Shown: piece by piece, positions 28,559 to 64,000 of the stretch | Layout: each line of letters begins with the position of its first letter | Numbering within the stretch: the stretch's first letter is position 1 | Origin: Acidiferrobacteraceae bacterium | Lineage (GTDB): Bacteria > Pseudomonadota > Gammaproteobacteria > Acidiferrobacterales > SZUA-150 | Length of the DNA: 64,000 nt | Assembly: GCA_003228915.1 (NCBI GenBank) | Contig: QIGL01000003.1 | Location: forward strand, 4,998 to 68,997 | Direction of reading: 5' to 3' | Program-made: the position numbers and the translations under genes | The notes under the pieces: model-generated | What the model saw: the letters and a program-made list of their open reading frames with translations, nothing else | Told to the model about the DNA's origin: nothing | Database searches by the model: none

Positions 28559-29167
28559 CTAATGTTTGCTTGCATTCACCTTGTTAACCTGAACAATGAC
28601 ACCAAACCTGGGATGGTCAAAATAGTTTAAAGCGGCAGAACGGACACGCCTGTTTTCTTTGATAATAAAATAATTTGCAGTATTTCCAAAGCTAGTATTT
28701 CCATCCATGCCTTTATTGTCACCACCATTCTCAGCCGCCATTAGTTCTTCTGTCAGCACCAGGTTCAGGTTAACGTGTAAAAAACGGCCCTTGTAGAAGA
28801 GCACAGTACCATCTAGTTTTTCTTCGCCATTGGCAATTCGGATCAGTTTGGCTTCAGTTTTTGGAATCGCATCCTGGATCCATCTTTTGTGACTAATGAT
28901 TGTGTAATCACCGCTTGCAAGTAATTTGTCTGATATTTTCCTGATTTCAGATTCAGCCGGGACACCACCACCTGCTGGCGAGGCATTGTCAACATCTGGT
29001 TGATTGTTGGGGTCAATATCCTGCAGCCAGAGCTCGCTACCTTGATCTTCAATTTGCATATTTTTAAAAACAAGAATTTCAACTTCATAAACGGGTATTT
29101 TCTCAGAAGCCGCAATTGCTGATGATGAAAATAACAGGCCTGCTAACAGGAGGGGTAAATACTTCAT
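28559..29167 (-). CDS. CsiV/DUF2803-like periplasmic protein
   Basis: The ORF is open to 29203. The start at 29167 gives a clean signal peptide 'MKYLPLLLAGLLFSSSAIAA'. The 'YEVEILVF', 'HKRWIQ' and 'ALNYFDHPRFGVIV' blocks resemble the CsiV family from memory. Confidence 0.55.
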   Translation of the reverse strand: MKYLPLLLAGLLFSSSAIAASEKIPVYEVEILVFKNMQIEDQGSELWLQDIDPNNQPDVDNASPAGGGVPAESEIRKISDKLLASGDYTIISHKRWIQDAIPKTEAKLIRIANGEEKLDGTVLFYKGRFLHVNLNLVLTEELMAAENGGDNKGMDGNTSFGNTANYFIIKENRRVRSAALNYFDHPRFGVIVQVNKVNASKH

Positions 29168-29232
29168 AATATTTTCCAGATAGTGTCTAATTCGAGAGTT
29201 CATGATTGTAGATCGTCAAAGGAATTATTTGT

Positions 29233-29769
29233 ATGGCCGTTCGTCAGATATTAAAAATGGGTGACCCGGAACTCTACCAGTCTTGTGAGCCAGTGCAAGA
29301 ATTTAATACGTCTGTACTGACAGGCATAATTGAAGATATGTTCGATACCATGGCCGAACACAATGGCGTTGGCCTGGCAGCACCACAAATCGGCATTCAA
29401 AAGCGAATAGTAATTTTTGGCCTGGAAAGTAATCCCCGGTACCCGGATGCGGAAACTGTACCTGAAACCATATTGATTAACCCGGTCATTACGCCTGTTG
29501 GTGATTTGCAGGAAGAGGGCTGGGAGGGTTGCCTGAGCATTCCGGGTATGCGCGGCCTGGTTTCCAGGTATAGCAAAATTAAATATAGCGGATTGTCACC
29601 CGCAGGAAAAAATATAGCGCGTGAAGTTGAAGGTTTTCATGCCCGGGTAGTACAACATGAGTGCGATCATCTGGACGGAATACTTTATCCACTCAGGATA
29701 AGGGATATGAGAAATTTTGGTTATGAAGAGGCCTTGTCTCAGTCTGATACAGACGAGCCTGAAATCTAG
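29233..29769 (+). CDS. def: Peptide deformylase
   Basis: 178 aa with '[10 protein letters not shown]', 'EGCLSIPG' and 'HECDHLDG' metal-site motifs. Confidence 0.93.
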
Positions 29770-29810
29770 CACAGTTTCCGGGCCAGGCTAAAGGTAGCCC
29801 GAATAAGCTT

Positions 29811-32800
29811 TTAATCAGACTTTAAATATTCAATTACTTCTGAAATTTTTATAATCCTGTCGTTAATGGACGGCATTTCGTCAATCAAACGCAGTTTGTC
29901 TGGTCCTTCAAGCCTGAATTTCTTTGGTTGCGACTGCAAAAGCTGAATAATTCTGGATGAGTCAACACTGGGGTGGCTCTCAAATTCAAAACGCGCACCT
30001 TTGGCGTTGATATCAATTTTTCGGATTCCGATTGCAGAGGCAAGTAATTTCAGTTGCGTCACCTTGAACAGGAGCAGCCCTTCTTCTGGTAACAAGCCGA
30101 AACGGTCGATAATTTCTTCTTTCAGTAATTTCAGCGCTTCCGGATTTTTTGCATTGGCAACACGTTTGTAAAGCACCAGGCGTATATGAACGTCAGGCAG
30201 GTAGGCGTCAGGAAATAATGTAGGCGCATGAATATTTATTTCGGTGCCACTATGGGTGTGGGTATCAATTTCCAGTTGCCCACCCGCCTTGAGTGTTTCT
30301 ATGGCACGATTTAATAATTCTGAGTAAAGTGTAAACCCTATTTCATTTATCTCACCGCTTTGTTGTTCGCCCAGAATTTCTCCGGCACCCCTGATTTCGA
30401 GATCGTTCGAGGCCAGGGCAAAACCTGCCCCCAGATCCTCCAGTGCACTGATGGCGTCCAGGCGTTTGCGGGCATCAGCGGTGATGCTTTTTCGGGATGG
30501 AATCATCAGGTAGGCATAGGCTCGATGATGCGATCTGCCAACACGTCCGCGAAGTTGATGCAATTGTGCCAATCCGAATTTATCGGCACGATGAATAATG
30601 ATTGTGTTCGCAGAGGGCACGTCGATCCCGGATTCAATGATCGTAGTACATAACAGGACATTAAAGCGCTGGTGATAAAAATCCAGCATGACATTTTCCA
30701 GTTGGCGCTCAGGCATTTGGCCGTGGGCAATACGGATATTTGCCTCGGGTACCAACTCAGCCAGATCACGTTCTGTTTTTTGCATAGTCCTGACTTCGTT
30801 ATGCAGGATGTATACTTGTCCACCGCGCCGTATTTCCCGGATGCAAGCTTCTCTTATCAGGGCGTTATTATTTTCATAAACAAATGTTTTTACGGACAGG
30901 CGTTCTTCCGGAGCTGTTGCGATAATAGAAATATCCCGCATACCTGACAAGGCCATATTCAGCGTGCGTGGTATCGGCGTGGCCGTGAGCGTCAATATGT
31001 CAACAGTGGCGCGCATTGATTTCAGTTTTTCCTTGTGCCTGACACCAAAACGATGCTCTTCATCAACCACAATCAGGCCAATCGCTTTAAATTTAATATC
31101 AGGCTGTAGTAACCTGTGGGTACCAATGACAATATCCGCTTTACCATTGGTTATGTTTTTTATTGTTTGTTCAATTTCTTTTTTTGTTTTAAAGCGCGAC
31201 AACAGTTCAATGTTTACGGCTTCGTCTGAAAACCTGTCAAGAAAATTTTGATAATGTTGCTGTGCCAGTAAAGTCGTCGGAACCAGTATTGCTACCTGTT
31301 TTCCGGAATTAACAGCCGCAAATGTTGCGCGAAGTGCCACCTCTGTTTTACCAAATCCAACATCGCCACAAACCAGCCTGTCCATTGGTTTGGGTTGGCA
31401 CATATCTGCCAGGACATCTTCTATTGCTTTTTCCTGGTCAGGTGTTTCCTCGAACGGGAAAAGCTGTTTAAAATGATCATAGGCTACCGAGTCGATTTTG
31501 CACTGGTGGCCAATGCCCGCACTTCGTTTCGCCTGGACATCAAGTAATTCCACCGCGGCATCATGGGCTTTTTTCTGGGCTCTTCTTTTAGCCTTTTCCC
31601 AGGCTTCACCGCCAAGTTTGTGCAGTGGTGTGCTATCAGGATTAATGCCGGTGTATCTGCTGACAAGGTGTAGTGATACCACCGGGATATAGAGCTTGTC
31701 GCCACCAGCATATGCAAGCGTTAAAAACTCTGTCAAACCGTCACCCACGTCCATGGATTGTAATCCGAGATAACGACCAATACCGTGGTCCTCGTGGACA
31801 ACGGGATCGCCGGATTTAAGCTCAGCCAGGTTTCGGATAATAACGTCAGGATCACGGGCTGTTTCTGAACGTCTTCTCTTTTGCGATGCGCGGGCACCAT
31901 ACAATTGGGCCTCACAAATAATCGTAATATTCGGATTATCAAGTTCCAGTCCTTTTTCCAGCTCCCCGGTTGTCAGCCCAACTTTGCAAGCATCACCTAT
32001 GAAACCATGCCAGTGATCAAAAACTTCGACATCAATTTTATTTGCCTTTAAGAGTGATCTTAGGGTTTCCCGGCGACCCGTGGTTTCAGCGACAATTAAA
32101 ATTCTTTTACCTGATTTTTTTATAAAATTAAATAACTGCTGATAGGGATTGTCTGAATGGGCATCCACCTGTAGTTGTGGTGGCGGTAAAGAATCAAAAC
32201 GGGATAGTCCGGCGCTTTCAAAACCGGGAATATTAATTGTCTCTGACTCATTGGCTTGAAAATCCAGTAAAGCAATGCGCGGCCAATGTGAAATTTCTGC
32301 GAAAAAACGATCTGCATCAAGAAACAGGCATTCTGGTTTCAGGACAGGCTTTTCCCGAAATAACTTTCGTTCAGCATAACGTTCAGCAACCTCCGATTGA
32401 AAATCCCTGGCGAGGTGATAAGTCGTTTCCGTAACAACAACCAATGATTTTTTTGGCAGGTAATCAAAAATGGACTCCAGTTGTTCGAAATAGAGTGGCA
32501 GATAGTATTCAATGCCTGGCGGCATCAGGCCGTTGCTGACGTCACGGTAAAGTGAATTTTTCTGGGGATCGCCTTCGAAACGACTCCTGAATCGTTGCCT
32601 GAAATTATTGATACCCACTTCCGAGGTCGGAAATTCACGGGCAGGCAATAAACGTATTGATTTTAGCTGGTTGCCTGAACGCTGTGTGGCCGGATCAAAT
32701 AACCGTATTGACTCAAGCTCGTCGCCAAACAAATCGAGCCTGAAAGGTTGTTTGCTGCCCATGGGGAACAGGTCGACCAGTCCGCCTCGAACTGCAAACT

Positions 32801-46603: not shown

Positions 46604-46652
46604 GTGATAAAGAACAAAAATAGATACTCTTAAGGAATTTAAAGGTTAACGT

Positions 46653-47936
46653 ATGCTGGAACAACGATATTTTAGAGATGATATAAAACTGGCGGCAGAT
46701 TTACTCAAGAAACGCGGCTATACACTCGATACGGCGCGCATCAATAAACTGGAGTCAACACGAAAATCTATTCAGGTTGAAACACAGGATCTCCAAAGTC
46801 AGCGCAATAAAAAATCAAAACTCATTGGCCAGGAAAAATCAAAAGGCAATAATGCAACTGAGTTATTGGCCGAAGTCAGCAGTCTTGGTCAGGCGCTTAA
46901 GGAAAAAGAAACGCAACTATCTGATATTTTAAATCAGCTACGAACGTTAAGCCTGAACGTGCCTAATATTCCCCATGACAGCGTGCCGGCAGGCAAAGAT
47001 GAAAATGACAATCAGGAAATAAAAAAATGGGGTCAACCAAAAAAGTATAGTTTTGATGTGCTCGACCATGTTGATATTGGCGCACAGTTGGGCATGCTCG
47101 ATTTTGAAGTTGCGGCAAAAATTGCCGGCTCACGTTTTTCTCACATGTCCGGCCAGCTCGCGCGCCTGCACCGCGTCTTGACCCAATTTATGCTGGATAC
47201 ACATACGAGTGAGCATGGCTACAAAGAAGTGTACGTGCCTTATATTGTTAACGAAAAAAGCCTGGAGGGGACGGGGCAGTTGCCCAAGTTTGAACAGGAT
47301 TTATTTAAACTGAATACAGAGCAAGAATATTATTTAATCCCGACTGCCGAAGTGCCCGTCACCAATCTTGTGCGAGACACGATACTGAATGGCCACGAGG
47401 TACCGCTTAAGTTTACGGCCCACACCCCCTGTTTCAGGAGTGAAGCCGGTTCCTACGGAAAAGATACCCGTGGCATGATCAGGCAACACCAGTTTGAAAA
47501 AGTTGAATTAGTGCAAATAGTCGAACCCGGTAAATCCTATGATGCACTGGAAGAACTAACCGGCCATGCCGAAACAATATTGCAAAAACTTGAGTTACCC
47601 TATCGCGTAGTGAGTTTATGTACCGGGGATTTGGGATTTTCTGCAGCCAAGACCTATGACCTGGAGGCCTGGTTACCGGCACAAAAAACATACCGGGAAA
47701 TATCGTCTTGCAGTAATTTCGAATCATTCCAGGCAAGAAGATTACAGGCAAGATGGCGACCCACTGAAAAAGGTAAGCCGGAACTGGTGCATACTGTGAA
47801 CGGTTCAGGACTGGCCGTTGGCAGGGCTTTGGTAGCGATCATGGAAAATTATCAACAGGAGAGCGGGGCAGTCGCGATACCAACTATTTTGCAACCCTAC
47901 ATGGGTGGCCAGAAATTAATAGAGCCCGAAGTGTAG
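46653..47936 (+). CDS. serS: Seryl-tRNA synthetase
   Basis: 427 aa with an N-terminal coiled-coil arm and class-II motifs ('YLIPTAEVP', 'FRSEAGS.GKDTRG..R.HQF.KVE', 'NGSGLAVGR'). Confidence 0.97.
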
Positions 47937-47966
47937 GGTGGGCATTGCCCACCATCCCGTCATTCC
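47937..47966. repeat. REP-like palindromic element (GGTGGGCA-T-TGCCCACC followed by CGTCATTCC)
   Basis: A 17-nt perfect palindrome at 47937-47953 abuts the serS stop. The same two-part motif recurs at 54276-54335. Confidence 0.7.
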
Positions 47967-48992: not shown

Positions 48993-49433
48993 TTTTTCAT
49001 CCTCAAGTTACTAAATATAGGTTATTTGAGCCGTAGCATACGGGAATGTTCCCCCTTAAATCAACCTGAAGACTGACAGAAATCAGGTAGAACTCAAACA
49101 GCATAAACCCGTAAATCAGGCTGGTAATCAGCAGATTCATTGGGTATTCTTCGGCTCGCTGCAAACGGGCCAATTATCGCGTTATGCGACTCATATGGAG
49201 GCTAAAAATGCCAATTTCAAGCAATTTTAGAGTCCAGGCACCGTCTTCGGGCGAAACTAAAGTAAAACCCGGAATCCAGTAAAGCGGCGTAATAATACTG
49301 AGGTAAGTAAGTGAATTAGAATTTTAAAGAATAAAATAAGTTTTATCTGGAGAGGTGGTCGCCAAGCAGCGGTGATTGTTACAAATTGGAGTAAATAAAA
49401 AATAGAAAATAATTAAGCAAAATATTGATTACA

Positions 49434-49523
49434 GGAGAGGTGGCAGAGTGGTCGAATGCGGCGGTCTTGAAAACCGTTGAGGGTTTATCCCCTCCCAGGG
49501 TTCGAATCCCTGCCTCTCCGCCA
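49434..49523 (+). tRNA. tRNA-Ser (anticodon UGA), type II with a long variable arm, CCA encoded
   Basis: The acceptor stem is GGAGAGG/CCTCTCC. The anticodon stem-loop is GCGGT-CTTGAAA-ACCGT, the variable arm is GAGGG...CCCTC, and the T-arm is CAGGG-TTCGAAT-CCCTG. The 3' end is G-CCA. Confidence 0.95.
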
Positions 49524-49530
49524 TTAATAT

Positions 49531-49555
49531 AAAAAGGGGCTTTGCGCCCCTTTTT
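49531..49555 (+). terminator. Palindromic terminator hairpin after tRNA-Ser
   Basis: The sequence is AAAAAGGGGC-tttgc-GCCCCTTTTT, with a 5-bp GC stem and A/T arms on both sides. Confidence 0.75.
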
Positions 49556-49556
49556 A

Positions 49557-49939
49557 TATTTATTGTCTGTGATGTGGCTTCGAACCACACACCGGGTGAG
49601 AATCTGCCACACAGGATGTGCAAATGCCGTGGAGCACATGGAAGTGCGGGAACGGCCCTATGGGCATGGCAAGGATTGTTCCAGACAATCCTTTTGCACT
49701 AGAACCGCCTTTGGCGTTTCATCAAGTACTTCCTGCGCTACGCTCCGGTCGCATTCCCACCCACTGTAGAATCCCTTCGGGCTTCATTCAGCATTTCCTC
49801 GCTTTGCTCAGGTCATCCCTGGTGGTCAGATGCCCAGGTGCCGCGAGCACAGGGACGACATACATGGACGTATAAGTGTCGCGGGAGACAGGAAGTCGGG
49901 AGCGACTGGCAGGAGCGGCCTGCCTCAATATTAGTAGGA
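49557..49939 (+). other. Unclassified GC-rich, hairpin-dense intergenic element (candidate structured ncRNA or insertion remnant)
   Basis: My hand count over 49561-49920 gives about 56% G+C, against AT-rich flanks. No credible ORF is present. There are several perfect stems (for example AAGGATTGT/ACAATCCTT at 49671-49693, and GGCAGG/CCTGCC). The element ends at a plus-strand terminator. Confidence 0.4.
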
Positions 49940-49961
49940 GGGGCCTTGCGCCCCTTTTTTT
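49940..49961 (+). terminator. Plus-strand rho-independent terminator (near-copy of the tRNA-Ser terminator)
   Basis: The hairpin GGGGC-cttgc-GCCCC (49940-49954) is followed by T7 (49955-49961). The T-run is present only in the plus orientation. Confidence 0.7.
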
Positions 49962-49963
49962 AA

Positions 49964-51739
49964 TCAAGGCCTGTAACTGGGTAACTCAACGACATAGGCA
50001 TCTACGGAATTACCGCCACCCCAGTCACTGCCGAATAACAAACGTGTCCCGCTTGGGCTGATCACGACCTGGGGCTCGGCCCAGTATCCACGGGGCCCGG
50101 CCTTACCAAAGGTGCGATTATGGCCGACACGGCAGACTTGCCCGCCGGCATTGGTATTGGCCAGTAACAACTCATTGGCCAGCACGGTTTGACCGCTGGT
50201 ATTGCCGACGATTGATACCGCCACCCAGCCGGGAGCCTGAAGCGCCAGTGCCGAAACATGGGTGCCTGAGGGAGGATAAGGATAACCGGTACTGGGACCG
50301 ACAATCACACGGGAACTGCCGTCATTCATGTCATTGGTCACCAGCGATCCGGTAAGAGCGCCGTCAAAGGCAACCGCATTGTGGGTATCGCGACCGTTCG
50401 CAAGGCGTCCAAGGGAGGCGTGATCAAATGGATTGGCGATACTCAGGCTGCGTACGAAGTTCATATTAAGGTCACGCACCTCGGCGGCGCCGCTGTTAAT
50501 AAAAAATAGCTGTGAACCACTAGCAGACGCAATGGGTGCCAGACCACCTGATGCGGCCGCGGTTGTCCCTACCGTATCAGTACTGATTCGATAAGAAAAC
50601 GAGGTGCCTGATGAACAAGACAGTCCGATGACATCGGTGTCCCACGACATATACATGGGGTCACCGCCGCCACTGATGCTACCGGCAGGGCAGGTGGACG
50701 AGAAATCGCGAACCGCCTGCTTGGTATCGCTGCTAATAAGATAGCGGGTCAATGTCTTGTTGCTGCTATTTACATAATAAAGAATGTCTGGGTCGGTTCC
50801 ATGCCAGTAGAATTGCTCAAGATCCGGTGGATTGATGCTCAGTTTTTTGATGTGTTGATAGGTTTTGCCATTGTATAAGTGATGGCCAGCCCCACCCGGC
50901 ACACCGGAGCCGGTGTGGTACAAAATCAGGTAAGACTCATCAGCATTCCAGGCCGGTATGGTCGAATAGGCTGGTTTGATTACACCGGTGCTGCCAGCGT
51001 TACTGATTCGGCGAATGGTTGTGCCGAATTGGGGATCTGTCACCGCGACCCCGACTGCCGGTTTTGCCAGCGCCGTCATGGGGTGAGCAGCTTTGTCTGT
51101 AATCAGTCCGGCACAAAGATCTGCCACATTACCCGATGAGTAAAAAGCAGTCACGACCTGATTCTGATTCATTGTAACGGTGCATGGTGCATTGCCACTA
51201 CAGGCACCGCTCCAGCCAACAAACGTGTAAGTTGGGTCAGGCGTTGGCGTCAGGGTAACCGACGTACCATCTGCGTAGGATTGCGTGCAATCACTGCCAC
51301 AATTTATTCCAGCCGGACTACTGGACACAGTACCACCAGTATTAGTGCTGACAACCAATTGATAGGTGCCGGGTGCCGCAGTTACAAAGTTCGCGACCAC
51401 TGATTGATTCTGGGTCATGGAAACAGAACAGCTGCTGGTTCCGGTACAGGCGCCGCTCCAGTTATTAAAAACAAAGCCACCACCAGGCGATACTGTTAAC
51501 GCCACCTGTGTGCCACTTATATAATCTTCTGTGCAATCACTGCCGCAGGAAATACCAACGGGTGTACTGGACAAGGTGCCAGTTCCCGTGGTGGAGGCGT
51601 CCAGTGTGTACAAGATGCTGTTATTGATTGGCGGCGTTGCTTCTACTGATCCTTCTGAAGAACAAGCGGAAATTGCTAATACCGAAAAAAAGACAAATAG
51701 AAGTCGTACCATGATAATGGGTCGGTGCTTTGTGAGCAT
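49964..51739 (-). CDS. Predicted lipoprotein with two InlB-B-repeat-like Cys-containing modules and a C-terminal beta-propeller-like domain
   Basis: 591 aa with the lipobox 'LAISAC'. It has two ~75-aa repeats of the form '...SSTPVGISCGSDCTEDY..GT.V.LT..P...F.F..WSGAC.G...C.V.M.QNQ.V.A.F'. The C-terminus ends 'SPSGTRLLFGSDWGG'. The gene is GC-rich relative to its neighbours. Confidence 0.7.
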   Translation of the reverse strand: MLTKHRPIIMVRLLFVFFSVLAISACSSEGSVEATPPINNSILYTLDASTTGTGTLSSTPVGISCGSDCTEDYISGTQVALTVSPGGGFVFNNWSGACTGTSSCSVSMTQNQSVVANFVTAAPGTYQLVVSTNTGGTVSSSPAGINCGSDCTQSYADGTSVTLTPTPDPTYTFVGWSGACSGNAPCTVTMNQNQVVTAFYSSGNVADLCAGLITDKAAHPMTALAKPAVGVAVTDPQFGTTIRRISNAGSTGVIKPAYSTIPAWNADESYLILYHTGSGVPGGAGHHLYNGKTYQHIKKLSINPPDLEQFYWHGTDPDILYYVNSSNKTLTRYLISSDTKQAVRDFSSTCPAGSISGGGDPMYMSWDTDVIGLSCSSGTSFSYRISTDTVGTTAAASGGLAPIASASGSQLFFINSGAAEVRDLNMNFVRSLSIANPFDHASLGRLANGRDTHNAVAFDGALTGSLVTNDMNDGSSRVIVGPSTGYPYPPSGTHVSALALQAPGWVAVSIVGNTSGQTVLANELLLANTNAGGQVCRVGHNRTFGKAGPRGYWAEPQVVISPSGTRLLFGSDWGGGNSVDAYVVELPSYRP

Positions 51740-54261: not shown

Positions 54262-54275
54262 TTTATTGACTCATT

Positions 54276-54446
54276 GGTGGGCGATGCCCACCCTCCACCC
54301 TACAAAAGTTGTTATCCCACCACCTCGTCATTCCCGGGGCAACGGGAATCCAAGTGTTTTAATGAGCAGTTTGTTAGTTATGTACTGGATACCCGCTTCC
54401 GCGGGATGACGGAAGCTTGTCATTCCGGCCCAATAGTCAGGAATGA
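54276..54446. repeat. Cluster of REP-like palindromes in the cysG/response-regulator intergenic region
   Basis: Four palindromes are present. They are GGTGGGC-gat-GCCCACC (54276-54292), ATTCCCG-gggcaa-CGGGAAT (54330-54349), CCCGC-ttcc-GCGGG (54392-54405) and TCATTCC...GGAATGA (54420-54446). The first unit plus 'CGTCATTCC' matches 47937-47966. Confidence 0.7.
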
Positions 54447-54457
54447 TACTTTTTTGC

Positions 54458-55123
54458 TTAGCTCTTTTTTTCTTTTCGATTAATACCGTTCTCAACGGCA
54501 ATGACTGCTGCCTCGACACGGGAGTGCACGCCCAGTTTTCGTAGAATCGATTTAACATGAAGTTTAACGGTGCCATCGGTAATATCCAGTTCACGGGCAA
54601 TGACTTTGTTACTTTGACCATCGGCAATATGACTTATAATTTCACTTTCACGGGGCGTCAGGTTGTCTAATCCCTTGTGCCTGTCAGCAGGCTTATCCAG
54701 CTCATCTGTTTTACCTTGAACAATCCTGGTAAGCGATCCAATGAGTTCTTTGGCTACAACGTTATCACCAGATAATGCCGAATTTAATGCCGGTACCAGG
54801 TCTTCCGGATCCATGTCTTTCAGCAAATAACCCTGGGCACCACTACGCAAGGCTTCTGCCAGGTCTTGTTCTTCGCGACTCATGGTTAACATCAAAACAG
54901 GTGTTTCAATTTTTTCAGACCTGAGTGCTTGCAGTGTTTCCGGGCCAGTCATGCCCGGCATTTTCATATCCAGTAAAATAATATCGGGCTTTAATTCTCT
55001 GGCCTTTTCTATGCCTTCCTGACCACTGCCCACTGAGGCGGCAATATCGATACCTCGACTCTGTAGTAAAGTTTCTATGCCTTTGCGCACCAGGGCGTGA
55101 TCGTCAATAAGAAGTACGCGCAT
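54458..55123 (-). CDS. NarL/FixJ-family response regulator (REC + LuxR-type HTH)
   Basis: 221 aa with 'RVLLIDDH', the phospho-acceptor context 'PDIILLDMKMPGM', and a C-terminal 'LTPRESEIISHIADGQSNKVIARELDITDGTVKLHVKSILRKLG'. Confidence 0.92.
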   Translation of the reverse strand: MRVLLIDDHALVRKGIETLLQSRGIDIAASVGSGQEGIEKARELKPDIILLDMKMPGMTGPETLQALRSEKIETPVLMLTMSREEQDLAEALRSGAQGYLLKDMDPEDLVPALNSALSGDNVVAKELIGSLTRIVQGKTDELDKPADRHKGLDNLTPRESEIISHIADGQSNKVIARELDITDGTVKLHVKSILRKLGVHSRVEAAVIAVENGINRKEKKS

Positions 55124-56705
55124 TGGAAATTTCTCGAATTAGATTAGTTGAATTATTTTGCTTATGGATAGCAGGAAAACCTAAAGAAATTTGCGTGCCT
55201 TCTCCAGGCTCGCTTTCTATTGATAGCGTGCCATCTAATCTTTGCGCTCGTTCCTTCATAATTGAAATTCCAATGTTTTCACCGGGCCGTGAAGCATGTC
55301 CTGCTGTGTCAGTTTCTATACCATGTCCGTCATCTTCAATCAGGATTATAAACTCTTCATCAAGACCGTATTTTAATATTATTCTGACATTAGATGCATT
55401 ACTGTGTTTTCTAACATTCGTCAGTGCTTCCTGAATAATTCTGTAAACTTGCACCTCCTGAACTGGAGAAAAGCTGTATTGATTCCACTCGTTTTGTAAA
55501 AAAACCGATATTTTTGTTTCTTCTCTGAATTTCAAGACCAGGTCTTTGATGGCAGGAACAAGTCCACGATCATCGATACGTGATTTATAGTTTCCCAGCA
55601 CATCGCGCAAATCTTCGTGGGCTTCATCGATTGCTGATTTTAGTCTTCTTACTTCGTTTTGAGCACCGCGGATATCTTTTTTGTATAATATCTCACCCAG
55701 CATTTTAATTTGCAGGCGCATGCTGACCAGTGATTGCGCCAGGGAGTCGTGTAACTCGTTGCCTATCATATTTCGTTCTTCCATAATGGCCAGTCGACGT
55801 TCATTATCATCAAGCCGGGATTTTTCAATCGCCAGCCCAAGATGTTTACCGATACTATTTAATAAATCCCTGACATCTCTTCCCAGTTCATCACTTGATC
55901 GTTTCAGGAAAAGATTATAGATCCCGAGAATTTTTTCCCGGTACTGGAGCGGGACAACGACTAATTCGGCACAGCCATCAACAAGCAACTCTTGTCCAAT
56001 AATTTTGTTACACGTTTCGATGCCTGTTTGAATACCAATGCCACCGTTTTTTGTAATATTGCCGCAGAGGCATAGATCAATATCCATGCAGTTTTCCTGT
56101 TTTATTATTTCACTGGAAAAACCCCGGCTCGCGATTAATAAGGTAGAATTATTTTCAGTCAATAACCTGACGCTTGCAGCCTTGGCATCTACCAGCACCA
56201 TTAGTGTATCAAGGAATTGTTCAAGCAATTCATCGAGATTTCTGGCAGTACTCAAATCAGTGGCAATATCATATAAAATTTCCAGGGACCTGCTCTTGGC
56301 AGCGATATGATCGGTTTTTTCCTGGACCCTAATATCCATTTCTTCAATTAATCCGGACACCTCGTGGGTCAAATTATTAACATCGGAAATAACGCCCTTA
56401 AAAGCAGTTTTTTCAGATAAGGGGATGTCTGTATGGAGATCGCCTTTACGTAAACGATTGGACCATTTTTGGAGTTCTGTAAACGGTAGCAATAATTTTT
56501 TAATCACGAAATAATAAAGACTGGCTACCAGGATGAGCATTAGCAAACCAATGCTTATATAAACAGCTGGTGTACCAGTTATCATAGCCTGACCGCCACT
56601 AAACAAGAGCAAAATTGCAAGGGCAGCAATCCCCAAAACCAGGGTTGTAATAATTACCAGGGGATGGAAGATATTTAGTTTGATAGCGGCCAGTTTCATT
56701 ACCAA
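55104..56705 (-). CDS. Sensor histidine kinase (2 TM, HAMP, Cys-rich GAF, HisKA_3, HATPase)
   Basis: 533 aa. Two TM helices are separated by only about 12 residues. A HAMP-like segment follows, then a GAF-like region containing 'CMDIDLCLCGN...C...C'. It has the 'IGNELHDSLAQSL' H-box and 'DDGHGI', 'GIS.M.ERA' ATPase motifs. It overlaps the regulator gene by 20 nt. Confidence 0.9.
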   Translation of the reverse strand: MVMKLAAIKLNIFHPLVIITTLVLGIAALAILLLFSGGQAMITGTPAVYISIGLLMLILVASLYYFVIKKLLLPFTELQKWSNRLRKGDLHTDIPLSEKTAFKGVISDVNNLTHEVSGLIEEMDIRVQEKTDHIAAKSRSLEILYDIATDLSTARNLDELLEQFLDTLMVLVDAKAASVRLLTENNSTLLIASRGFSSEIIKQENCMDIDLCLCGNITKNGGIGIQTGIETCNKIIGQELLVDGCAELVVVPLQYREKILGIYNLFLKRSSDELGRDVRDLLNSIGKHLGLAIEKSRLDDNERRLAIMEERNMIGNELHDSLAQSLVSMRLQIKMLGEILYKKDIRGAQNEVRRLKSAIDEAHEDLRDVLGNYKSRIDDRGLVPAIKDLVLKFREETKISVFLQNEWNQYSFSPVQEVQVYRIIQEALTNVRKHSNASNVRIILKYGLDEEFIILIEDDGHGIETDTAGHASRPGENIGISIMKERAQRLDGTLSIESEPGEGTQISLGFPAIHKQNNSTNLIREISNARTSY

Positions 56706-56859
56706 AAGTGAATCAGGATCGGGGCGCCACTATAGTTGTTTAGCTAACAGGGGTATAGAGGTGAAAAAGTACTGACTTATAAGTTATTGTTTAATAATAA
56801 CATTATACCATAGTACGAGAATGAACTAGCTTCCACGGCGCCAATCTACAGCTTTGAAA

Positions 56860-57171
56860 CTATTTTTCGGGGGCTATGTAATTCGGATCATTTGGGTTCA
56901 TAAAAATAAACTGGGGTTTGTTTTCTTCAACCTCCACGTAATCTATAGTCATATCTTTCAAAAGATCCAGGATAGAAGGTGAAAAAATGATGGTAACACC
57001 ATTTTCCTGCACCTGGACATCATCGTCCGTGGTCTCGTCAAAGCCCATACCGTATTCAAAAGCATTATTGCCATCTTTTTTTACTGCCAACCTCAGGGAC
57101 ATGCCGTCCATGCCACCTTCTTTTGCCGAGGCTAGAATCTGGTCGGCGGCTTTTTTAGATATTTTAATCAT
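56860..57171 (-). CDS. dsrR: IscA/HesB-like protein lacking the cluster-binding cysteines (DsrR)
   Basis: 103 aa with the A-type-carrier fold pattern ('I.IS..AA..I........G..LRL.V...G...F.Y.M.FD') but no Cys residues. It sits directly after dsrN, matching the dsrN-dsrR order of Allochromatium vinosum. Confidence 0.8.
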   Translation of the reverse strand: MIKISKKAADQILASAKEGGMDGMSLRLAVKKDGNNAFEYGMGFDETTDDDVQVQENGVTIIFSPSILDLLKDMTIDYVEVEENKPQFIFMNPNDPNYIAPEK

Positions 57172-58554
57172 AATAACCAGTCCTGTTTTTTAACCCGTGA
57201 AACAAATTCAAGAAATTCGTTAATCCAGGGATTCGATAAAGTATTTCTCTGGTGTGCGTAAGTTGCAATTATATTATTTATCAGAAAACCGTCCTGTTTT
57301 TTGGTAATACCTTTTCCGCGAATAACGTCAAAGCCAAATTTATTATTTGAAGAATTAAACTTTAACTCAGAATAATGAAATTCATGGGGCGGGTTGCTGA
57401 TCAGCCCCCTTAATATTACCATTGATCCATGGATGTTTTTCGTTTTTCTTAAGATAAACATAGCCCCGGCCAACTGGCCTGTCATGCATAACGGAGTAGG
57501 CATCGATGACGCCGAGCATTTCCGAGTAAGCATCATGCCAGTGAATACCATTACTCAAATACATCAGACCACCACATTCGGCATAAACTGGCAGTCCTTT
57601 GTTAATTTTATCCCTTAGCAGGGCTCTCATTGTAGTATTATTTTCGAGCTGTTTCATTCTGCTTTCTGGAAAACCACCACCGATAAACAACCCATCTATT
57701 GGGGCAATCTTTTTATCATTGATAGCGTCAATAAAAATCAGTTTGGCACCAGCCTGTTCAAATGCTTCCAGGTCGTCCTGGTAATAAAAGCCAAATGCTT
57801 CGTCACGCAATATGCCTATCGTAATTCCTGCTGTTTTTTTTGAATCTATATTTGAAAAATTGCTGGTCTCTTCTGTTGTAGATGCAATATTATTTATGCG
57901 CTCGAGATCAATTTGTTTTGTAATATTTTCGGTTATTTTTTTAATCAAGACATTAGCGCTGGCGGTTTCATTGCTGGGGATCAGGCCAAGATGTCTTTCT
58001 ACAATTTCCAGTGCCGGGTCGCGCTGGATGGCACCCAATACGGAAATTTCAGTATATTCCTGCAAGACCCTTCGCAGTTTTTCTTCATGGCGGCTGCCAC
58101 CAACCTTGTTGAGTATCACGCCGGCGATATTTACATCAGGCTCAAATTTCTGAAAACCAAGCAAAAGCGGGGCAACACTACGAGTGATACCCTGGGTATC
58201 AATAACCATAATTACCGGGGTTTTGAGTAATCTTGCGAGGGCTGCGCTACTGTTACTGCCATCAAGGTCAAGTCCATCGGACAAACCCTTATTGCCTTCA
58301 ATGATACTTACGTCAGCGTCAGTACTTTTGGAGTCGAATAAACTTTTTATCTCATCATGGGTCTGGGTAAAAAAATCAAGATTATAACAGTGCCTGCCTG
58401 ATGCCAGTGCCAGCCACATTGGGTCGATATAGTCTGGACCTTTTTTAAAGGGTTGAACTTTGAGGTTATTTTTTCTCAGCGCCGCACACAAACCAAGTGT
58501 GACCGTTGTTTTCCCGGAGGATTTATGGGCTGCGGAAATTAATAAACGTGCCAT
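57168..58554 (-). pseudogene. dsrN: Siroheme amidase-like cobyrinic acid a,c-diamide synthase homologue (DsrN), interrupted by a +1 frameshift at a G5 run
   Basis: ORF 57382..58554 carries the CbiA/CobB N-terminus ('SAAHKSSGKTTVTLGL', 'KKGPDYIDP'). It stops just before the GATase motif. ORF 57168..57551, in another frame, supplies 'HEFHYS...YAHQR...NPW'. The frames meet at CCCCC 57405-57409. Removing one base gives one 461-aa protein. Confidence 0.8.
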
Positions 58555-58557
58555 ACA

Positions 58558-59571
58558 TTAAGCTGCGGCTGAAAGGCGATCCCGGTTCCTGTTTGCCCAT
58601 AATTGATTGGCCAGTGTCTCAGCAGTTGTAAAACTGTCGGCCTTACCAATCATTTTCAGGACAATGGCAGCGGTTCCAATAACGGCAGCTTCGCCATATT
58701 CATTACTACTTTCGTCACGCCAGACTGTGGTCAACTCAGCAGGGTTAAGTGTGCCTGGTTTTACGTGTCTGCGGGCGAACATTGCCGGCCAGGTTTCATC
58801 TGCCAGGTTTTCACCGTGAAGTGTTTTTACCAGGCAGTCCATATCCGGGTTTCTTTCTATTTCTCCACCTTCACCTTTGACTACAGCAGCATGCTTGTGA
58901 TTTAGCAAAAGTGAGGCTTTTTGATGCATAGGGTGGTAAGCCGGGTGGTGAATGCCAGTAATTACATGTTCAGCATCAAATGGATTGAGCAGTCTTGCTA
59001 CCGTGTGGACAGGAGAGCGAAGTCCAATGACAGGTCTGAGATCTATGATTTCCTGAAGTCTGGGCGACATATTTTCCATATCAAGATAGGAAAAACCGGA
59101 AGTTTTTATTTGTTCGGCAGCCTCTTTAAGTGAAGTAGAGACGTCAACTCCAAGCTGCTTCAAAACATCCCTGGTATAAATACGGCCTTCGGTATGGCCA
59201 CTGGCTCCATGCATAAAAATATTAATATTGTTTTCTGCCAGCAATAGCGCGGCCAAAATATACCAGGGCAAGTGTCTTCTTTTGCCAGCGTAAGAAGACC
59301 AGTCAATCTGGATCTCCGGGTGATTCGCCGGAAAATTTTTGTCATCATGCAGTGTTTTTCGGATTGCATTGACAAAACCTGCAACTTCTTCCGGGGTTTC
59401 TTCTTTTACACGCATGAGCGTCAAGATTGCACCGAGCTGTTCGGGCGTTACTTCTCTGGCCATAATCATAGACATGACTGTTTCTGCTTCTGCCATGGAG
59501 AAGTTGCGCGAGCCTTTTCTTCCTTTACCAAGGATTCGGACATATTGTGCAAATGGGTGTTCAGAATTCAC
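58558..59571 (-). CDS. YbiB/TrpD2-like protein (glycosyltransferase family 3 fold without the PRPP-binding GTGGD loop)
   Basis: 337 aa. The N-terminal helical bundle has 'KGRKGSRNFSMAEAETVMSMIMAREVTPEQLGAILTLMRVKEETPEEVAGF'. The 'SSYAGKRRHLPW' segment replaces the TrpD GTGGDG loop, as in E. coli YbiB ('IPSYNGARKQANL'). The comparison is from memory. Confidence 0.7.
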   Translation of the reverse strand: MNSEHPFAQYVRILGKGRKGSRNFSMAEAETVMSMIMAREVTPEQLGAILTLMRVKEETPEEVAGFVNAIRKTLHDDKNFPANHPEIQIDWSSYAGKRRHLPWYILAALLLAENNINIFMHGASGHTEGRIYTRDVLKQLGVDVSTSLKEAAEQIKTSGFSYLDMENMSPRLQEIIDLRPVIGLRSPVHTVARLLNPFDAEHVITGIHHPAYHPMHQKASLLLNHKHAAVVKGEGGEIERNPDMDCLVKTLHGENLADETWPAMFARRHVKPGTLNPAELTTVWRDESSNEYGEAAVIGTAAIVLKMIGKADSFTTAETLANQLWANRNRDRLSAAA

Positions 59572-59808
59572 TGTTTAGGATTCCTTTGGATTTTATTCAA
59601 TGTTTCCTCGCTATGATTTAGAATTTTCTACGAGCTCGTTAAGCACTCTCAAAATTATCCCCGCAGATTCTGGCCGTGCTGTTTTTTATGATTTTATACA
59701 GAGCTATGTCAATTACCTGTTACCTGGCGCAGTCCGAGCGCAGGGCTTTTAGAAGTGATCTGTATTTACGAGAATAGCAGGTTTTGCAAGAGATAAACCT
59801 TAAGGTTT

Positions 59809-61040
59809 TCAGGCCGATGGTGTTGAATGTGGATCAACCACCTCATTGGCAAGACTTTGAGGCAAGAAGGGCAGAATTTTAATTGCAAAAGTTGCCGCTG
59901 CCAGGGCAATGCCGACGCCACCAATTCCGAGAAGAATTTCAGCCGGCGTCGCTGTGTAATTACCAGTTTGGCCGTCACCAAAACTACTGCTCACTTCCAT
60001 GCCAGGGAAGATTTGCAACGGGTATGCCTGACCGCCAATGATAATAACGTACAATTGTGCGAGCCCGCCAAATACAACAAGCAAGCAGCCAAACGATAAC
60101 ATTAGTCGTGATTTATAAAAAGCAGGCACATAAAAAATTAGCAGGGGAAGGAATAAGGCTGCCAATTAGAATTTGGTCAATCCAGAAAACTTTTGTATAG
60201 ATTCCGCCATCGATTAGAATGAACTTCTCAATTCCGCTATGTTCGGCGATATAGAGATTTGTCAAATGATAGACCAACACAAAATAAAGTACTGCAATAA
60301 CGAATATACCGAGTAATTTTCTAAGTCTGTTTACAACTACATCGCCGAGAGGTCTGCCAGTTAAATGGTACGTGGTAATTAAGTACACTAAAAATATTGC
60401 CAGGCCGAATGAAAATGACATAATAATAAACAGGGGCGCCATAATTGCAGCGTCATATGCAGAGCGAGCAACAAGAAAACCAAAAATAGAGCCAGTACCA
60501 GTGGTTAAGGTAAGCCGCCAAATGAAAGCGCCTACACCAGCTGCGCGATTATATTTTTTTAAATTATTTTGCATCATAGTCCAGATGTAGATGCCGACCA
60601 CAGCAATAAAACCTGAGTACAAAATCATATTCCAGGCAAATATGGATTTAAAATTATAAATTGTCATCGAGATGATCAGTCTGTCTGGCCTGCCAAGATC
60701 CAGTACGAGTATTGCCAGGCCACCAACTAGCAAAGTAATTGCCAGCAGCGCTGACAGTCGTGCCAGCGGTTTATACATTACTTTTCCAAACACAGATCCG
60801 ATTGAGGCAACATTTAATGGCAACATTTAATGCGCCAGAGGCGGCCACGATCAAAAATACGGCGAATACATGAGGTATGCCCCAGACGATTTGGTTGTTC
60901 ATGCCGGTTACATAGTGGCCGTTATGCTCCATATAGTATGTTGAGCCAAGCGCAGCAGCAATAAAAACACCAAATATTCCCAGCAGGGTCCAGTAACCGA
61001 AACTGGTGCCTTTGATCATGTCATAAGTTAGTGACTTCAT
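59809..61040 (-). pseudogene. dsrP: NrfD/PsrC-like integral membrane subunit DsrP, split into three ORFs by a 13-bp tandem duplication and a second +1 shift
   Basis: Three consecutive minus-strand ORFs (61040->60771, 60826->60113, 60165->59809) are all polytopic and NrfD-like. Deleting one copy of the 13-mer at 60806-60831 joins '...AASGALNVA' to 'SIGSVFGK...'. A second shift lies within 60116-60165. The repaired length is about 405 aa. Confidence 0.8.
60806..60831. repeat. Perfect 13-bp tandem duplication GGCAACATTTAAT x2 inside dsrP
   Basis: This is read directly: 60806-60818 and 60819-60831 are identical. Confidence 0.95.
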
Positions 61041-61086
61041 AATTATTGCATTTCCCGATTCTTGGTATTCACTATATAATTTGGCA

Positions 61087-61818
61087 CTACAAGCCCTGGT
61101 AACGTACACCAGTATTTAAATTTAAATCGCTGCGCAGTTGTCTGCTAGGTTCTGTCCTGCGCCGCCTGGAGATTTCAGTTTTTAAATCGTTAAGATCACC
61201 AAACAAGATAGCGTCATTCCCGAGTTCTGTGCAAGCTTCAGCGCATGCAGTATTGTTATCCCCGCGATCGATTTTATGAACACATAGCGTGCAGGACTCA
61301 ACCGTACCTTTACCTCTCGGGACATGGGATTTCTGATCAGTTATATCTTCATGAATAAATGATCGTGCCTTGTAAGGGCAGGCCATCATGCAATAACGAC
61401 AGCCAATACAAATATGTTTATCTACCAGGACAATACCGTCTGCTCTCTTGAATGAAGCGCCAGTTGGGCAAACATCAACACAAGGGGGTTCTTCACAGTG
61501 CTGGCACATCACAGGTAAAAAGTGTGTATACCCGGTTTCGGGGTCTTTGGCCGTGACCTTTCGAATCCACTGGGCATCAGTTTCAGGCCGATTATTACTG
61601 GTTATGCCGTGTTCTGTATGGCATGCATCAACACAGTATGAGCAGCCCTCAGCACATTTAGCGCTGTCAATCAGCAAGCCCCATCTCTTGGCTGTAGATG
61701 CAGCTTCTTCAGGACTGCGAGCTTGCGCTAGTTCAACCAGACGAATACCCGGTGCGATTGCAGCACCCGTTACAGCTGCTGCACCAGCCTGCATGAATTT
61801 GCGACGACTGATACTCAT
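61087..61818 (-). CDS. dsrO: Periplasmic 4Fe-4S ferredoxin-like subunit DsrO (Tat-exported)
   Basis: 243 aa with the twin-arginine signal 'SISRRKFMQAGAAA'. It has multiple CxxCxxCxxxCP-type cluster motifs ('CIGCRYCMMACP', 'CQHCEEPPCVDVCP'). Confidence 0.88.
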   Translation of the reverse strand: MSISRRKFMQAGAAAVTGAAIAPGIRLVELAQARSPEEAASTAKRWGLLIDSAKCAEGCSYCVDACHTEHGITSNNRPETDAQWIRKVTAKDPETGYTHFLPVMCQHCEEPPCVDVCPTGASFKRADGIVLVDKHICIGCRYCMMACPYKARSFIHEDITDQKSHVPRGKGTVESCTLCVHKIDRGDNNTACAEACTELGNDAILFGDLNDLKTEISRRRRTEPSRQLRSDLNLNTGVRYQGL

Positions 61819-62252
61819 TGGTGTGGGTTCCCTTTGTTATCGTCTTTATTACTGACCGAAGTTTTTACATCGCGTTTGTCAGTGTGACAACTGAAGCAAT
61901 CAATCTTAACTGCAGCGTAGGTGTGACAGCTTTCACAAAAACCTTCTTTTCCGAGCACGCTGTTTGTATTCTCATCGGCATGGCAGTTGACACAATTTTT
62001 TAAACTGTATTGTTTGGTCCTGATTCCATCGTACACGGTCAAATCACGCTGGTGCAGGATTTTGTTCATGTGATTGCGGCGCATTTCGTCTGTATCATCA
62101 ACGCACTGACCGGGCTTAGTAATTTTAATAATTGGCAGCGGTGTCCGAATAGTATCCGACTTGTCAGTATTTCCAGCATTGGCAGCAACAGAAATACCCG
62201 TTGACGTAAAGCCAAACAATAGTACGAAAAGTATTAGAAATCTTGTCATCAT
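61815..62252 (-). CDS. dsrJ: Triheme cytochrome c DsrJ
   Basis: 145 aa with a signal peptide and three CxxCH motifs (CVNCH, CESCH, CFSCH), plus an upstream conserved Cys ('GQCVDD'). It overlaps dsrO by 4 nt. Confidence 0.88.
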   Translation of the reverse strand: MMTRFLILFVLLFGFTSTGISVAANAGNTDKSDTIRTPLPIIKITKPGQCVDDTDEMRRNHMNKILHQRDLTVYDGIRTKQYSLKNCVNCHADENTNSVLGKEGFCESCHTYAAVKIDCFSCHTDKRDVKTSVSNKDDNKGNPHQ

Positions 62253-62280
62253 CAGATTTTATTTCCTTTAATGATCGCTC

Positions 62281-64000
62281 TTAATGATCGCCGAGCCCCA
62301 TTTTGATATAACCAGTAGGGCAGACGTCAGCACAAATATGACAGCCAATACAACGATCATAATCCGTATAAACATAACGACCCATGGTCGAATGTTCTTT
62401 TGGTGTACGCTTTACAGCTTCCTGCGGACAATAAATAACGCAGTTATCACACTCAAAACACATACCACAGCTCATACATCGTTTAGCTTCGGCAATTGTT
62501 GCTTCTTCACTCAGGCCGGCAACGCGTTCTTCGAAGTGACCCAGAACCTGGCTTGAATCAGGGACAGTCTCAACACGTTTATTGCGATCTTCATGTTCAA
62601 AATGACCAAGGAATAATTCAGTCGATGCAACAATTTCGGCATTACCACGATCTTCGTAGTTATGGACGGCATAATCATCATCTATAGTGCCACGCAAACC
62701 ACGATCGATAGCACGCTCGTCATCTGGACCAGCTGGTTTGTATTCATCTGGCGTGTGATTTGTCTCACGTAATTTATCGAGTAAATCAAAATGGTGAACA
62801 TCGACCTTGGGTCGTTTGACCATTTCTTCATGTTTCAGATAATGATCAATGCTGATTGCTGCAATTGATGCCTGACCAATTACGGTCGTTAACAAATGTG
62901 GGCGGATAATATCACCACAGGCAAAAAATCCTGGTTTGTCAGGCATTTGATAATGTTTGTCGGCATCCATCAGGCCGCGTTCGTTACCAAATCCTTCCAG
63001 GCCTTCCATATTACCTGTTTGGCCAATAGCTGACACGATAAGGTCGCACTCGATATCGAATTCAGATCCTTCTACTACCACTGCTTTGCCTGATGAGTAA
63101 TCCATTTTAGCAACACGGAGTGCAGTTGCACGGCCATCATCGTCAATGATGACTTCAACCGGGCTAAGTGAGCCCTGAATTTCGACACCTTCTCGTGTGG
63201 CATCGTCAATTTCGTGTTTAGCTGCAGTCATGCCTTCAATTGGCTGGCGAGAAATCAGCATGACATCAGCGCCTTCACGTGAAGCAATTTCAGCTACATC
63301 ATGGGCGGTGTGTCCAAGGACGATGTTTTCGGGACGGTCTTTATCATGGATGTTAGTGATGCGGCCAAGTCGTCGAGCAACAGATACGACGTCGATAGAG
63401 GTATCACCACCACCGACGACTACAACTTTGCCGGCAACAGTTTTAAGTCGGCCTTCATTAAATGCAGACAGGAATGCAACACCTGAGACACAGTTTGTGA
63501 CTTTGTCTGCATTAGGAATAGGTAACGCGCGTCCGGATTGGGCGCCGATTGCAAATAACACGGCATCAAAATCTTTTTCCAGCTGTTTAATTGAAATATC
63601 TTTACCGATACGTGTATTCATGCGTTTCTCAACACCCATATCAATAATGCGATCCATTTCACCATCGAGCACGTCTCGAGGAGTACGATAACCAGGAATG
63701 CCATAACGCATCATGCCACCCAGGTCTTTATGGTCATCAAACAAAGTAACACCATGGCCCATACGACGAAGCTGGTAAGCAGCAGCAAGTCCGGCAGGAC
63801 CGCCACCAATAACGGCAACTTTTTTACCTGATTCTTTACCGGCAGTGAATGCCAGTTTATTAGTCAGAGCCCAATCGCCAATAAATTGTTCAACCGAATT
63901 AATGCCAACAAAGTCTTCTACTTCGTTGCGATTACAACCGTCTTCACAGGGAGCAGGGCAAACACGACCCATTACTGATGGAAATGGGTTGGCGTCAGTT
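62281..64000 (-). CDS. dsrL: DsrL (GltD-like NAD(P)H:acceptor oxidoreductase with a C-terminal 2x[4Fe-4S] ferredoxin domain); 5' end lies outside the window
   Basis: The frame stays open upstream of the M at 63972 to the window edge ('..TDANPFPSVMGRVCPAPCEDGCN'). It has FAD/NAD folds ('VAVIGGGPAGLAAA', 'VVVVGGGDTSID'). The C-terminus has 'CMSCGMCFECDNCVIYCP' and 'CIGCHICADVCP'. Confidence 0.88.
   Translation of the reverse strand, partial: TDANPFPSVMGRVCPAPCEDGCNRNEVEDFVGINSVEQFIGDWALTNKLAFTAGKESGKKVAVIGGGPAGLAAAYQLRRMGHGVTLFDDHKDLGGMMRYGIPGYRTPRDVLDGEMDRIIDMGVEKRMNTRIGKDISIKQLEKDFDAVLFAIGAQSGRALPIPNADKVTNCVSGVAFLSAFNEGRLKTVAGKVVVVGGGDTSIDVVSVARRLGRITNIHDKDRPENIVLGHTAHDVAEIASREGADVMLISRQPIEGMTAAKHEIDDATREGVEIQGSLSPVEVIIDDDGRATALRVAKMDYSSGKAVVVEGSEFDIECDLIVSAIGQTGNMEGLEGFGNERGLMDADKHYQMPDKPGFFACGDIIRPHLLTTVIGQASIAAISIDHYLKHEEMVKRPKVDVHHFDLLDKLRETNHTPDEYKPAGPDDERAIDRGLRGTIDDDYAVHNYEDRGNAEIVASTELFLGHFEHEDRNKRVETVPDSSQVLGHFEERVAGLSEEATIAEAKRCMSCGMCFECDNCVIYCPQEAVKRTPKEHSTMGRYVYTDYDRCIGCHICADVCPTGYIKMGLGDH

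Follow-up and report, generated by a model that had tools for sequence, protein, structure and literature searches.

Gene order and gene identities in the dsr cluster

We analysed a 64,000-nucleotide stretch of contig QIGL01000003.1 from an Acidiferrobacteraceae bacterium, which is called the window below. The organism is an uncultured gammaproteobacterial sulfur oxidiser that lives at hydrothermal vents. The last part of the window contains the distal half of its oxidative (reverse) dsr operon, in which two genes, dsrP and dsrN, do not keep a single reading frame. The nearest named relative was annotated as Acidiferrobacterales. Seven genes were identified with NCBIfam and Pfam models on the minus strand between 56860 and 64000. 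Their order, dsrL, dsrJ, dsrO, dsrP, a TrpD2/YbiB-like gene, dsrN and dsrR, agreed with that given in an initial annotation made from the letters alone. The genes are listed in the direction of transcription, followed by the pair of genes downstream of dsrR.

62281-64000, minus strand: dsrL; NF009410 609.8 bits (cut-off 516), from profile position 89; intact within the window
61815-62252, minus strand: dsrJ; triheme cytochrome c of 145 amino acids with the motifs CVNCH, CESCH and CFSCH; intact
61087-61818, minus strand: dsrO; ferredoxin-like subunit of 243 amino acids; NF045797 305 bits (cut-off 200); intact
59809-61040, minus strand: dsrP; NrfD-family membrane subunit; broken into three frames
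58558-59571, minus strand: TrpD2-family ("YbiB-like") gene of 337 amino acids; PRK09071 379 bits (cut-off 257); intact
57168-58554, minus strand: dsrN; CobB/CbiA-type siroheme amidase; broken into two frames
56860-57171, minus strand: dsrR; IscA-like protein of 103 amino acids, overlapping at its start with the last 4 bp of dsrN; intact
54458-56705, minus strand: GAF/HisKA_3 sensor kinase and NarL-type response regulator, identified by Pfam on the genes of the related contigs L082, L085 and L087

The close relatives used for comparison were five independently assembled contigs that were 93-99% identical to the window, together with two outgroups of 85% identity (L085 and L086). In addition, Logan contigs of 12 public metagenome runs (X1-X12) from at least six studies were examined. 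DsrL is an NAD(P)H:acceptor oxidoreductase that is typical of sulfur oxidisers. Its score above the NF009410 cut-off is in keeping with an oxidative cluster. About 573 C-terminal codons of dsrL were inside the window and the N-terminus lay beyond the window end; the protein has 662 amino acids in L081 and L085 and was 80% identical to the orthologue of locus L001. DsrO was recognised as the DsrMKJOP subunit by its NF045797 score. In the case of DsrJ, the score on NF038038 was 58.6 bits against a cut-off of 100, with all three CxxCH motifs present, and the synteny of the gene was kept in L081, L085 and L001. DsrJ sequences are poorly conserved (PMC10504309).

The two broken genes were assigned as follows. 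The middle piece of dsrP matched Pfam NrfD with 106.6 bits. The repaired protein of 404 amino acids gave 56 bits against the cut-off of 350 of the NCBIfam DsrP equivalog model, which was built on the sulfate-reduction complex. The assignment was made because of the NrfD match, the place directly after dsrO, and the contiguous gene found at this position in 70+ dsr loci, which showed 45-70% identity to DsrP. The first piece of dsrN gave 397 bits on NF002204 and the repaired protein gave 422.9 bits (cut-off 254), and a CobB/CbiA ATP-binding domain and a GATase_3 domain were found in this gene of the dsr cluster. Since NCBIfam holds no DsrN-specific model, the label DsrN rests on synteny; 64 other loci likewise have such a gene between dsrP and dsrR. 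DsrR, with an IscA/HesB fold, lies directly after dsrN, in a position conserved in most loci. It scored 35.8 bits on Pfam PF01521 (Fe-S_biosyn; cut-off 26.3) and 56.2 bits on TIGR00049, under the cut-off of 58.8, and the protein was identical in L082, L083 and L084.

The gene between dsrP and dsrN had been described in the initial annotation as YbiB-like and as inserted, and both descriptions had to be changed. The protein gave 379 bits on PRK09071 and 148 bits on the YbiB equivalog PRK08136, below its cut-off of 185. PRK09071 fitted far better, so that identity with E. coli YbiB was rejected in favour of a TrpD2-family paralogue. In L082 and L085-L089 the gene is likewise found between dsrP and dsrN, and every close relative has it at this place. 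It is a regular, conserved part of the operon in this clade and no insertion. The same position was occupied in 4 of 64 distant dsr loci (L049, L070, L074 and L077), which are unrelated alpha- and gammaproteobacterial loci. It is a candidate for a hitherto undescribed accessory gene of oxidative dsr operons.

Next to dsrR on its downstream side come the sensor kinase and the response regulator, a conserved neighbourhood whose relation to dsr is only putative. A convergent cysG (siroheme synthase) lies beyond this pair. The outgroups L085 and L086 carry the full operon upstream, dsrABEFHCMKLJOP-trpD2like-NR; in the contig of the window, the upstream part lies beyond the window end.

Frame breaks in dsrP and dsrN and their absence from relatives

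The reading frames were followed by tblastn using contiguous orthologues from 80 related loci as queries. dsrP was matched in frames 3, then 1, then 2, and dsrN was matched in frames 2, then 3. This was consistent with the three breaks reported in the initial annotation, two in dsrP and one in dsrN, each a step of +1. The frame arithmetic stood, with the actual lesions being of +13, +4 and +1 bp, and all three were perfect tandem duplications.

60806-60831, break 1, in dsrP: perfect 13-bp tandem duplication (GGCAACATTTAAT twice, plus strand), net +13; Tandem Repeats Finder period 13, 100% match
60146-60153, break 2, in dsrP: 4-bp tandem duplication (TTCC TTCC, minus strand), net +4
57386-57389, break 3, in dsrN: run of four C (minus strand) against three in all relatives, net +1

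As written from the ATG at 61040, dsrP reached a stop after 89 amino acids, and the first break came after residue 72 of 404. A single uninterrupted DsrP frame of about 400 amino acids was found in about 70 of the 80 more distant dsr loci, and this contig did not contain one. When one 13-bp copy was deleted, the sequence read ...AASGALNVASIGSVFG..., which is the orthologue consensus. Deletion of 4 bp at break 2 restored GSLIPLLIFY with exact orthologue spacing. A 1-bp repair of break 2 was rejected; it leaves one extra residue that was found in 0 of 13 aligned orthologues. The repaired DsrP had 404 amino acids, the length in the nearest relatives, and was identical to that of L087 at 397 of 404 positions. 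Read in three frames, dsrP as it is written in this contig is thus a pseudogene.

In the case of dsrN, the protein as written has 390 amino acids. The frame breaks off at His390 of the conserved HEFHYS motif, leaving no intact glutaminase domain that includes this histidine. Deletion of the extra C at break 3 gave ...QQPAHEFHYSEL, in agreement with the orthologue motif AHEFHYS. The repaired DsrN had 461 amino acids with HEFHYS at residue 390, and 457 of 461 residues were identical to the intact DsrN of L082. The alignment to orthologues proposed in the initial annotation thus gave contiguous proteins of 404 and 461 amino acids with the consensus restored.

We then compared the three sites with the relatives. 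The 13-bp copy was absent from VAPH01052851 (L081, 99.3% identical), and the 4-bp and 1-bp insertions were absent from VAPH01014602 (L082, 99.0%), which encodes the DsrN of 461 amino acids. The JGI contig Ga0063294_10040196 (L089, 96.7%) and the Logan contigs L083, L084, L087 and L088 were without the insertions wherever they covered the sites. By site, the 13-bp duplication was absent in L081, L087, L088, L089, L085, L086 and L001 and in runs X1, X2, X5, X6, X9 and X10. The 4-bp duplication was absent in L082, L087, L088, L089, L085 and L086 and in runs X1-X8, X10 and X12. The extra C of break 3 was absent in L082, L083, L084, L087, L085 and L086 and in runs X1-X8. The largest share of the words of the window in any indexed run was 0.89, and this ceiling fits a strain about 99.7% identical to the window and not the source of the contig itself. 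No RNA run was among the matching ones, and a literature search for the run and assembly accessions found nothing.

The initial annotation had named relatives carrying the same split open reading frames (ORFs) as functional pieces as a finding that would speak against decay. Such relatives were searched for, and none at 99% to 85% identity carries them. Because the relatives are without the lesions and about 70 of 80 distant loci are contiguous, the ancestral state was intact, and as an arrangement the split ORFs are neither conserved nor functional. These alignments show the lesions to be private and derived, with intact dsrP and dsrN in relatives from 99% to 85% identity. Recurrent decay of dsr genes in the clade was also considered and rejected. 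The apparent splits of dsrK and dsrJ in L086 (GCA_048061125.1, an Acidiferrobacterales metagenome-assembled genome (MAG)) are 100-N scaffold gaps at 4841-4940 and 7639-7738, and not frameshifts.

Origin of the three insertions

The quality of the rest of the contig was assessed with the same runs over positions 1-57100 of the window. The window differed from the X1/X2 strain by about 0.3%. Ten other indel differences from relatives were found, as listed below.

8547, 8566, 15639, 26312, 38879, 39661, 49321 and 52161: indels, non-coding
46640: 11-bp indel, non-coding; X1, X2 and X3 contigs carry an extra AAAGGAATTTA, which is not in the window
54288-54301: fourth private tandem duplication, 7 bp (CCACCCT twice), non-coding; one copy fewer in L082

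All 10 were non-coding. Since non-coding DNA makes up 10% of the sequence, the probability of this by chance was about 1e-10. Of the changes that set the window apart from X1, X2 and X3 together, 25 were synonymous, 7 were non-synonymous and 5 were intergenic. Two suspicious ORF pairs, lapB/pyrF and cysC/galU, were rejected as frameshifts; they overlap only by upstream extension of the ORF and are separate full-length genes. A general excess of tandem duplications was also rejected. There were 11 perfect 7-mers against about 3 in shuffles, but those inside intact genes are chance repeats, and among the tandem duplications only the 13-mer was exceptional. Because the indels were all non-coding, the substitutions were selection-filtered and the suspicious pairs were full-length, errors are not a general feature of the contig. 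It has the appearance of a genuine, distinct strain, with differences that are selection-filtered except in dsrP and dsrN. This bears out the statement of the initial annotation that the rest of the window is intact. The intergenic 46640 indel, upstream of the gene at 46653-47936, appeared to reflect different copy numbers of a short direct repeat.

The dsrP-dsrN stretch itself was variable between strains. In a tract inside dsrP, 60335-60578, 31 of 244 positions (about 13%) differed between L082 and the window, against about 0.3% elsewhere, and L081, from the same metagenome assembly as L082, had the window-like allele in this tract. This suggests recombination import or balancing diversity in the segment. 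Two haplotypes were present across dsrP-dsrN in X1 and X2, where the contigs were pieces of 200-600 bp, compared with 1-5 kb elsewhere. Eight private substitutions were counted in 53.8-64 kb, and two of the eight were non-synonymous. One is at 57498 in dsrN (Y in the window, N in relatives) and the other is R75H at 59348 in the TrpD2-like gene, at a residue that all cluster members conserve. The window stands alone at the two sites, where all relatives and the two 85% outgroups have the other residue.

We consider it an even chance that dsrP and dsrN are real strain-specific pseudogenes that arose by three slipped-strand tandem duplications. The flanks on both sides of each lesion were identical to a single relative over 110-800 bp, with no haplotype switch. 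Perfect tandem duplications between unchanged flanks, with no haplotype switch, are what replication slippage leaves behind, and neither the 13-bp nor the 4-bp event is a homopolymer base-calling error. Comparable indels segregate in the non-coding DNA of the species, namely the 11-bp indel at 46640, which was seen in three independent runs, and the 7-bp duplication at 54288. If dsrP and dsrN (2.6 kb) evolved as non-coding DNA, 2.3-4.6 indels would be expected, and 3 were observed. The two private non-synonymous changes, in dsrN and in the adjacent TrpD2-like gene, also count in favour of real mutations. Some sulfate reducers carry only DsrMK, and dsrP and dsrN are the more dispensable genes. 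DsrN is important but not strictly essential in Allochromatium vinosum, according to the literature as cited in PMC3368242.

DsrP is the membrane, quinone-side subunit of DsrMKJOP, and DsrN amidates the siroheme of DsrAB (PMC3368242; PMC10504309). Slipped-strand duplications of 13 and 4 bp in dsrP and of 1 bp in dsrN would have inactivated both genes in the lineage of the contig. The quinone-facing DsrP would end after 89 residues. DsrN would lose its last 70 or so residues from the conserved His of the glutaminase domain, and siroheme amidation would be lost because of truncation at this residue. With the first lesion fixed, any further ones in that functional unit would be neutral. The loss of both proteins would impair or abolish oxidation of stored sulfur by the reverse Dsr (rDsr) pathway, or would leave a DsrMK-only core with non-amidated siroheme.

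Several observations weighed against the lesions being real mutations. None of the three insertions was found in the five close contigs, the two outgroups or the contigs of the 12 runs. The duplication junction words were in none of the indexed runs, and the exact 13-bp and 4-bp junctions had no match in JGI metagenome contigs. Three lesions in 3.4 kb are many for a short private branch with about 8 substitutions in about 7 kb. dsrL, dsrJ, dsrO, the TrpD2-like gene and dsrR were without a lesion. The dsrP-dsrN stretch is one of unusually high allelic divergence between co-occurring strains, which is a setting where merging or polishing steps could misbehave. That the sampled DNA itself carries the lesions is inferred.

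A serious possibility, which we rate somewhat below even, is a local artefact of assembly or consensus. In this case the genes would be intact, and the three duplications, perhaps with the 7-bp one at 54288 as well, would have been added during merging, gap-closing or polishing of a heterogeneous, poorly covered stretch. Of all the datasets examined, this contig alone has the insertions, and all four private duplications fall within 6.5 kb (54288-60831). The heterogeneity described above, with the 31 differences of L082 in 60335-60578 and the two haplotypes and fragmented contigs of X1 and X2, is consistent with such an origin. Every event was also in the direction of duplication, as unmerged overlaps at joins would be. 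However, a chimeric join at the break sites was rejected, since there was no haplotype switch at any of the three and the flanks were identical over 110-800 bp. For a de Bruijn graph assembler to produce a 13-bp duplication, there must be reads that cross it, and errors of this kind are rare in Illumina reads; this background argues against an artefact. In addition, no coding indel was present elsewhere in the contig, the substitutions were selection-filtered, and natural 7-bp and 11-bp indels of the same type occur in this species. The initial annotation had offered relaxed selection or ongoing loss on the one side and error-prone or heterogeneous assembly on the other, and both sides still stand. 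The private, slippage-type lesions and the clean assembly favour real mutations, and the heterogeneity keeps the artefact under consideration.

It is unlikely that the insertions are real but unlinked, that is, loss-of-function alleles of different subpopulations stitched into one consensus, in which case no one cell would have to carry all three. Several haplotypes of the segment did co-occur in single samples, and stitching would remove the difficulty of three lesions on one short branch. However, no insertion allele was found in any run, and assemblers usually follow the majority path, so that three minority alleles in one contig are unlikely.

If the duplications are real slippage mutations, they might further have been selected, although we regard this as very unlikely. 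The vent lineage might have shed siroheme amidation and the DsrJOP branch, which faces the periplasm, giving a DsrMK-type minimal rDsr pathway or a stop at elemental sulfur. Alternatively, the duplications might be reversible slippage off-switches that produce on/off heterogeneity in stored-sulfur oxidation.

It is extremely improbable that the split frames are functional as separate polypeptides or through programmed +1 frameshifting, which only the arithmetic of three +1 shifts favours: the relatives, from 99% to 47% identity, all encode contiguous DsrP and DsrN, the shifts fall in new duplications and not in conserved motifs, which ruled out programmed frameshifting, dsrP is already broken after residue 72 of 404, and dsrN loses a conserved motif at its break.

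Comparison with known dsr systems and other features of the window

The cluster was compared with dsrABEFHCMKLJOPNRS of Allochromatium vinosum, whose gene roles are summarised in PMC3368242 and PMC10504309. The order dsrL-J-O-P-N-R is shared, and so are the families: DsrN of CobB/CbiA type, DsrR IscA-like, DsrO ferredoxin-like, DsrP NrfD-like and DsrJ a triheme cytochrome. In contrast to A. vinosum, the window has a TrpD2-family gene between dsrP and dsrN, and after dsrR there is no dsrS but the sensor kinase, the response regulator and the convergent cysG. dsrP and dsrN are also frameshifted in this contig. The dsrMKLJOPNR(S) layout proposed in the initial annotation therefore held for the order dsrL-J-O-P-N-R and for the missing dsrS after dsrR, and it did not hold for the TrpD2-like gene as an insertion. 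The uncultured Acidiferrobacterales-like loci from vents and sediments (L082 and L085-L089; for example GCA_048061125.1 and ERZ1742238 NODE_232) showed an identical order, including the TrpD2-like gene, the kinase and regulator, and cysG. At 85-99% nucleotide identity, these loci encode an intact DsrP of 404 amino acids and an intact DsrN of 458-461 amino acids, whereas the window alone has the three duplications. The cluster is thus a standard oxidative dsr cluster with two peculiarities at the level of the clade, which are the TrpD2-family gene between dsrP and dsrN and the absence of dsrS after dsrR.

Ordinary slipped-strand pseudogenes show the same short, perfect direct duplications, with several lesions in one unit that is no longer selected. 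The lesions of the window differ in that they come from an assembled consensus, and the private branch that carries them is very short. Whether the frameshifts reflect ordinary pseudogenisation or an assembly fault, no new kind of system is involved. Real lesions would mean that this uncultured sulfur oxidiser from a vent is naturally knocked out in dsrP and dsrN. They would be a hint that, under some conditions at vents, cells can do without the DsrJOP module and siroamide or are even better off without them, and metabolic calls of a "complete rDsr pathway" for this MAG would be wrong. If they are an artefact, the case would be a caution that a strain-heterogeneous operon can gather frameshifts in an otherwise clean metagenomic contig. 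Either outcome leaves the knowledge of how the Dsr system works unchanged.

Some smaller features were observed outside the dsr cluster. In the mfd region at 28672-32006, X1 and X2 had zero depth over most of the length, yet 0.88-0.89 of the words were indexed, which is a tool inconsistency and not biology. The 7-bp duplication at 54288 lies at the edge of a hairpin (GGTGGGC-n3-GCCCACC) that resembles a repetitive extragenic palindromic (REP) element. Inverted copies of this REP-like element lie at 47931-47954 and 54275-54298, 6.3 kb apart. They bracket yccA, a tRNA, a repeat protein of 591 amino acids and cysG, and X3 contigs jump between the copies. The 591-amino-acid ORF at 49964-51739 had only a faint match to a Listeria-Bacteroides repeat model. 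A long-arm tRNA at 49434-49520 (Rfam, 60 bits) accounts for a depth spike of about 10-fold at 49136-49706 in all runs. Behind this tRNA come two related GC-rich copies that resemble a hairpin or terminator, at 49522-49570 and 49926-49974, 404 bp apart.

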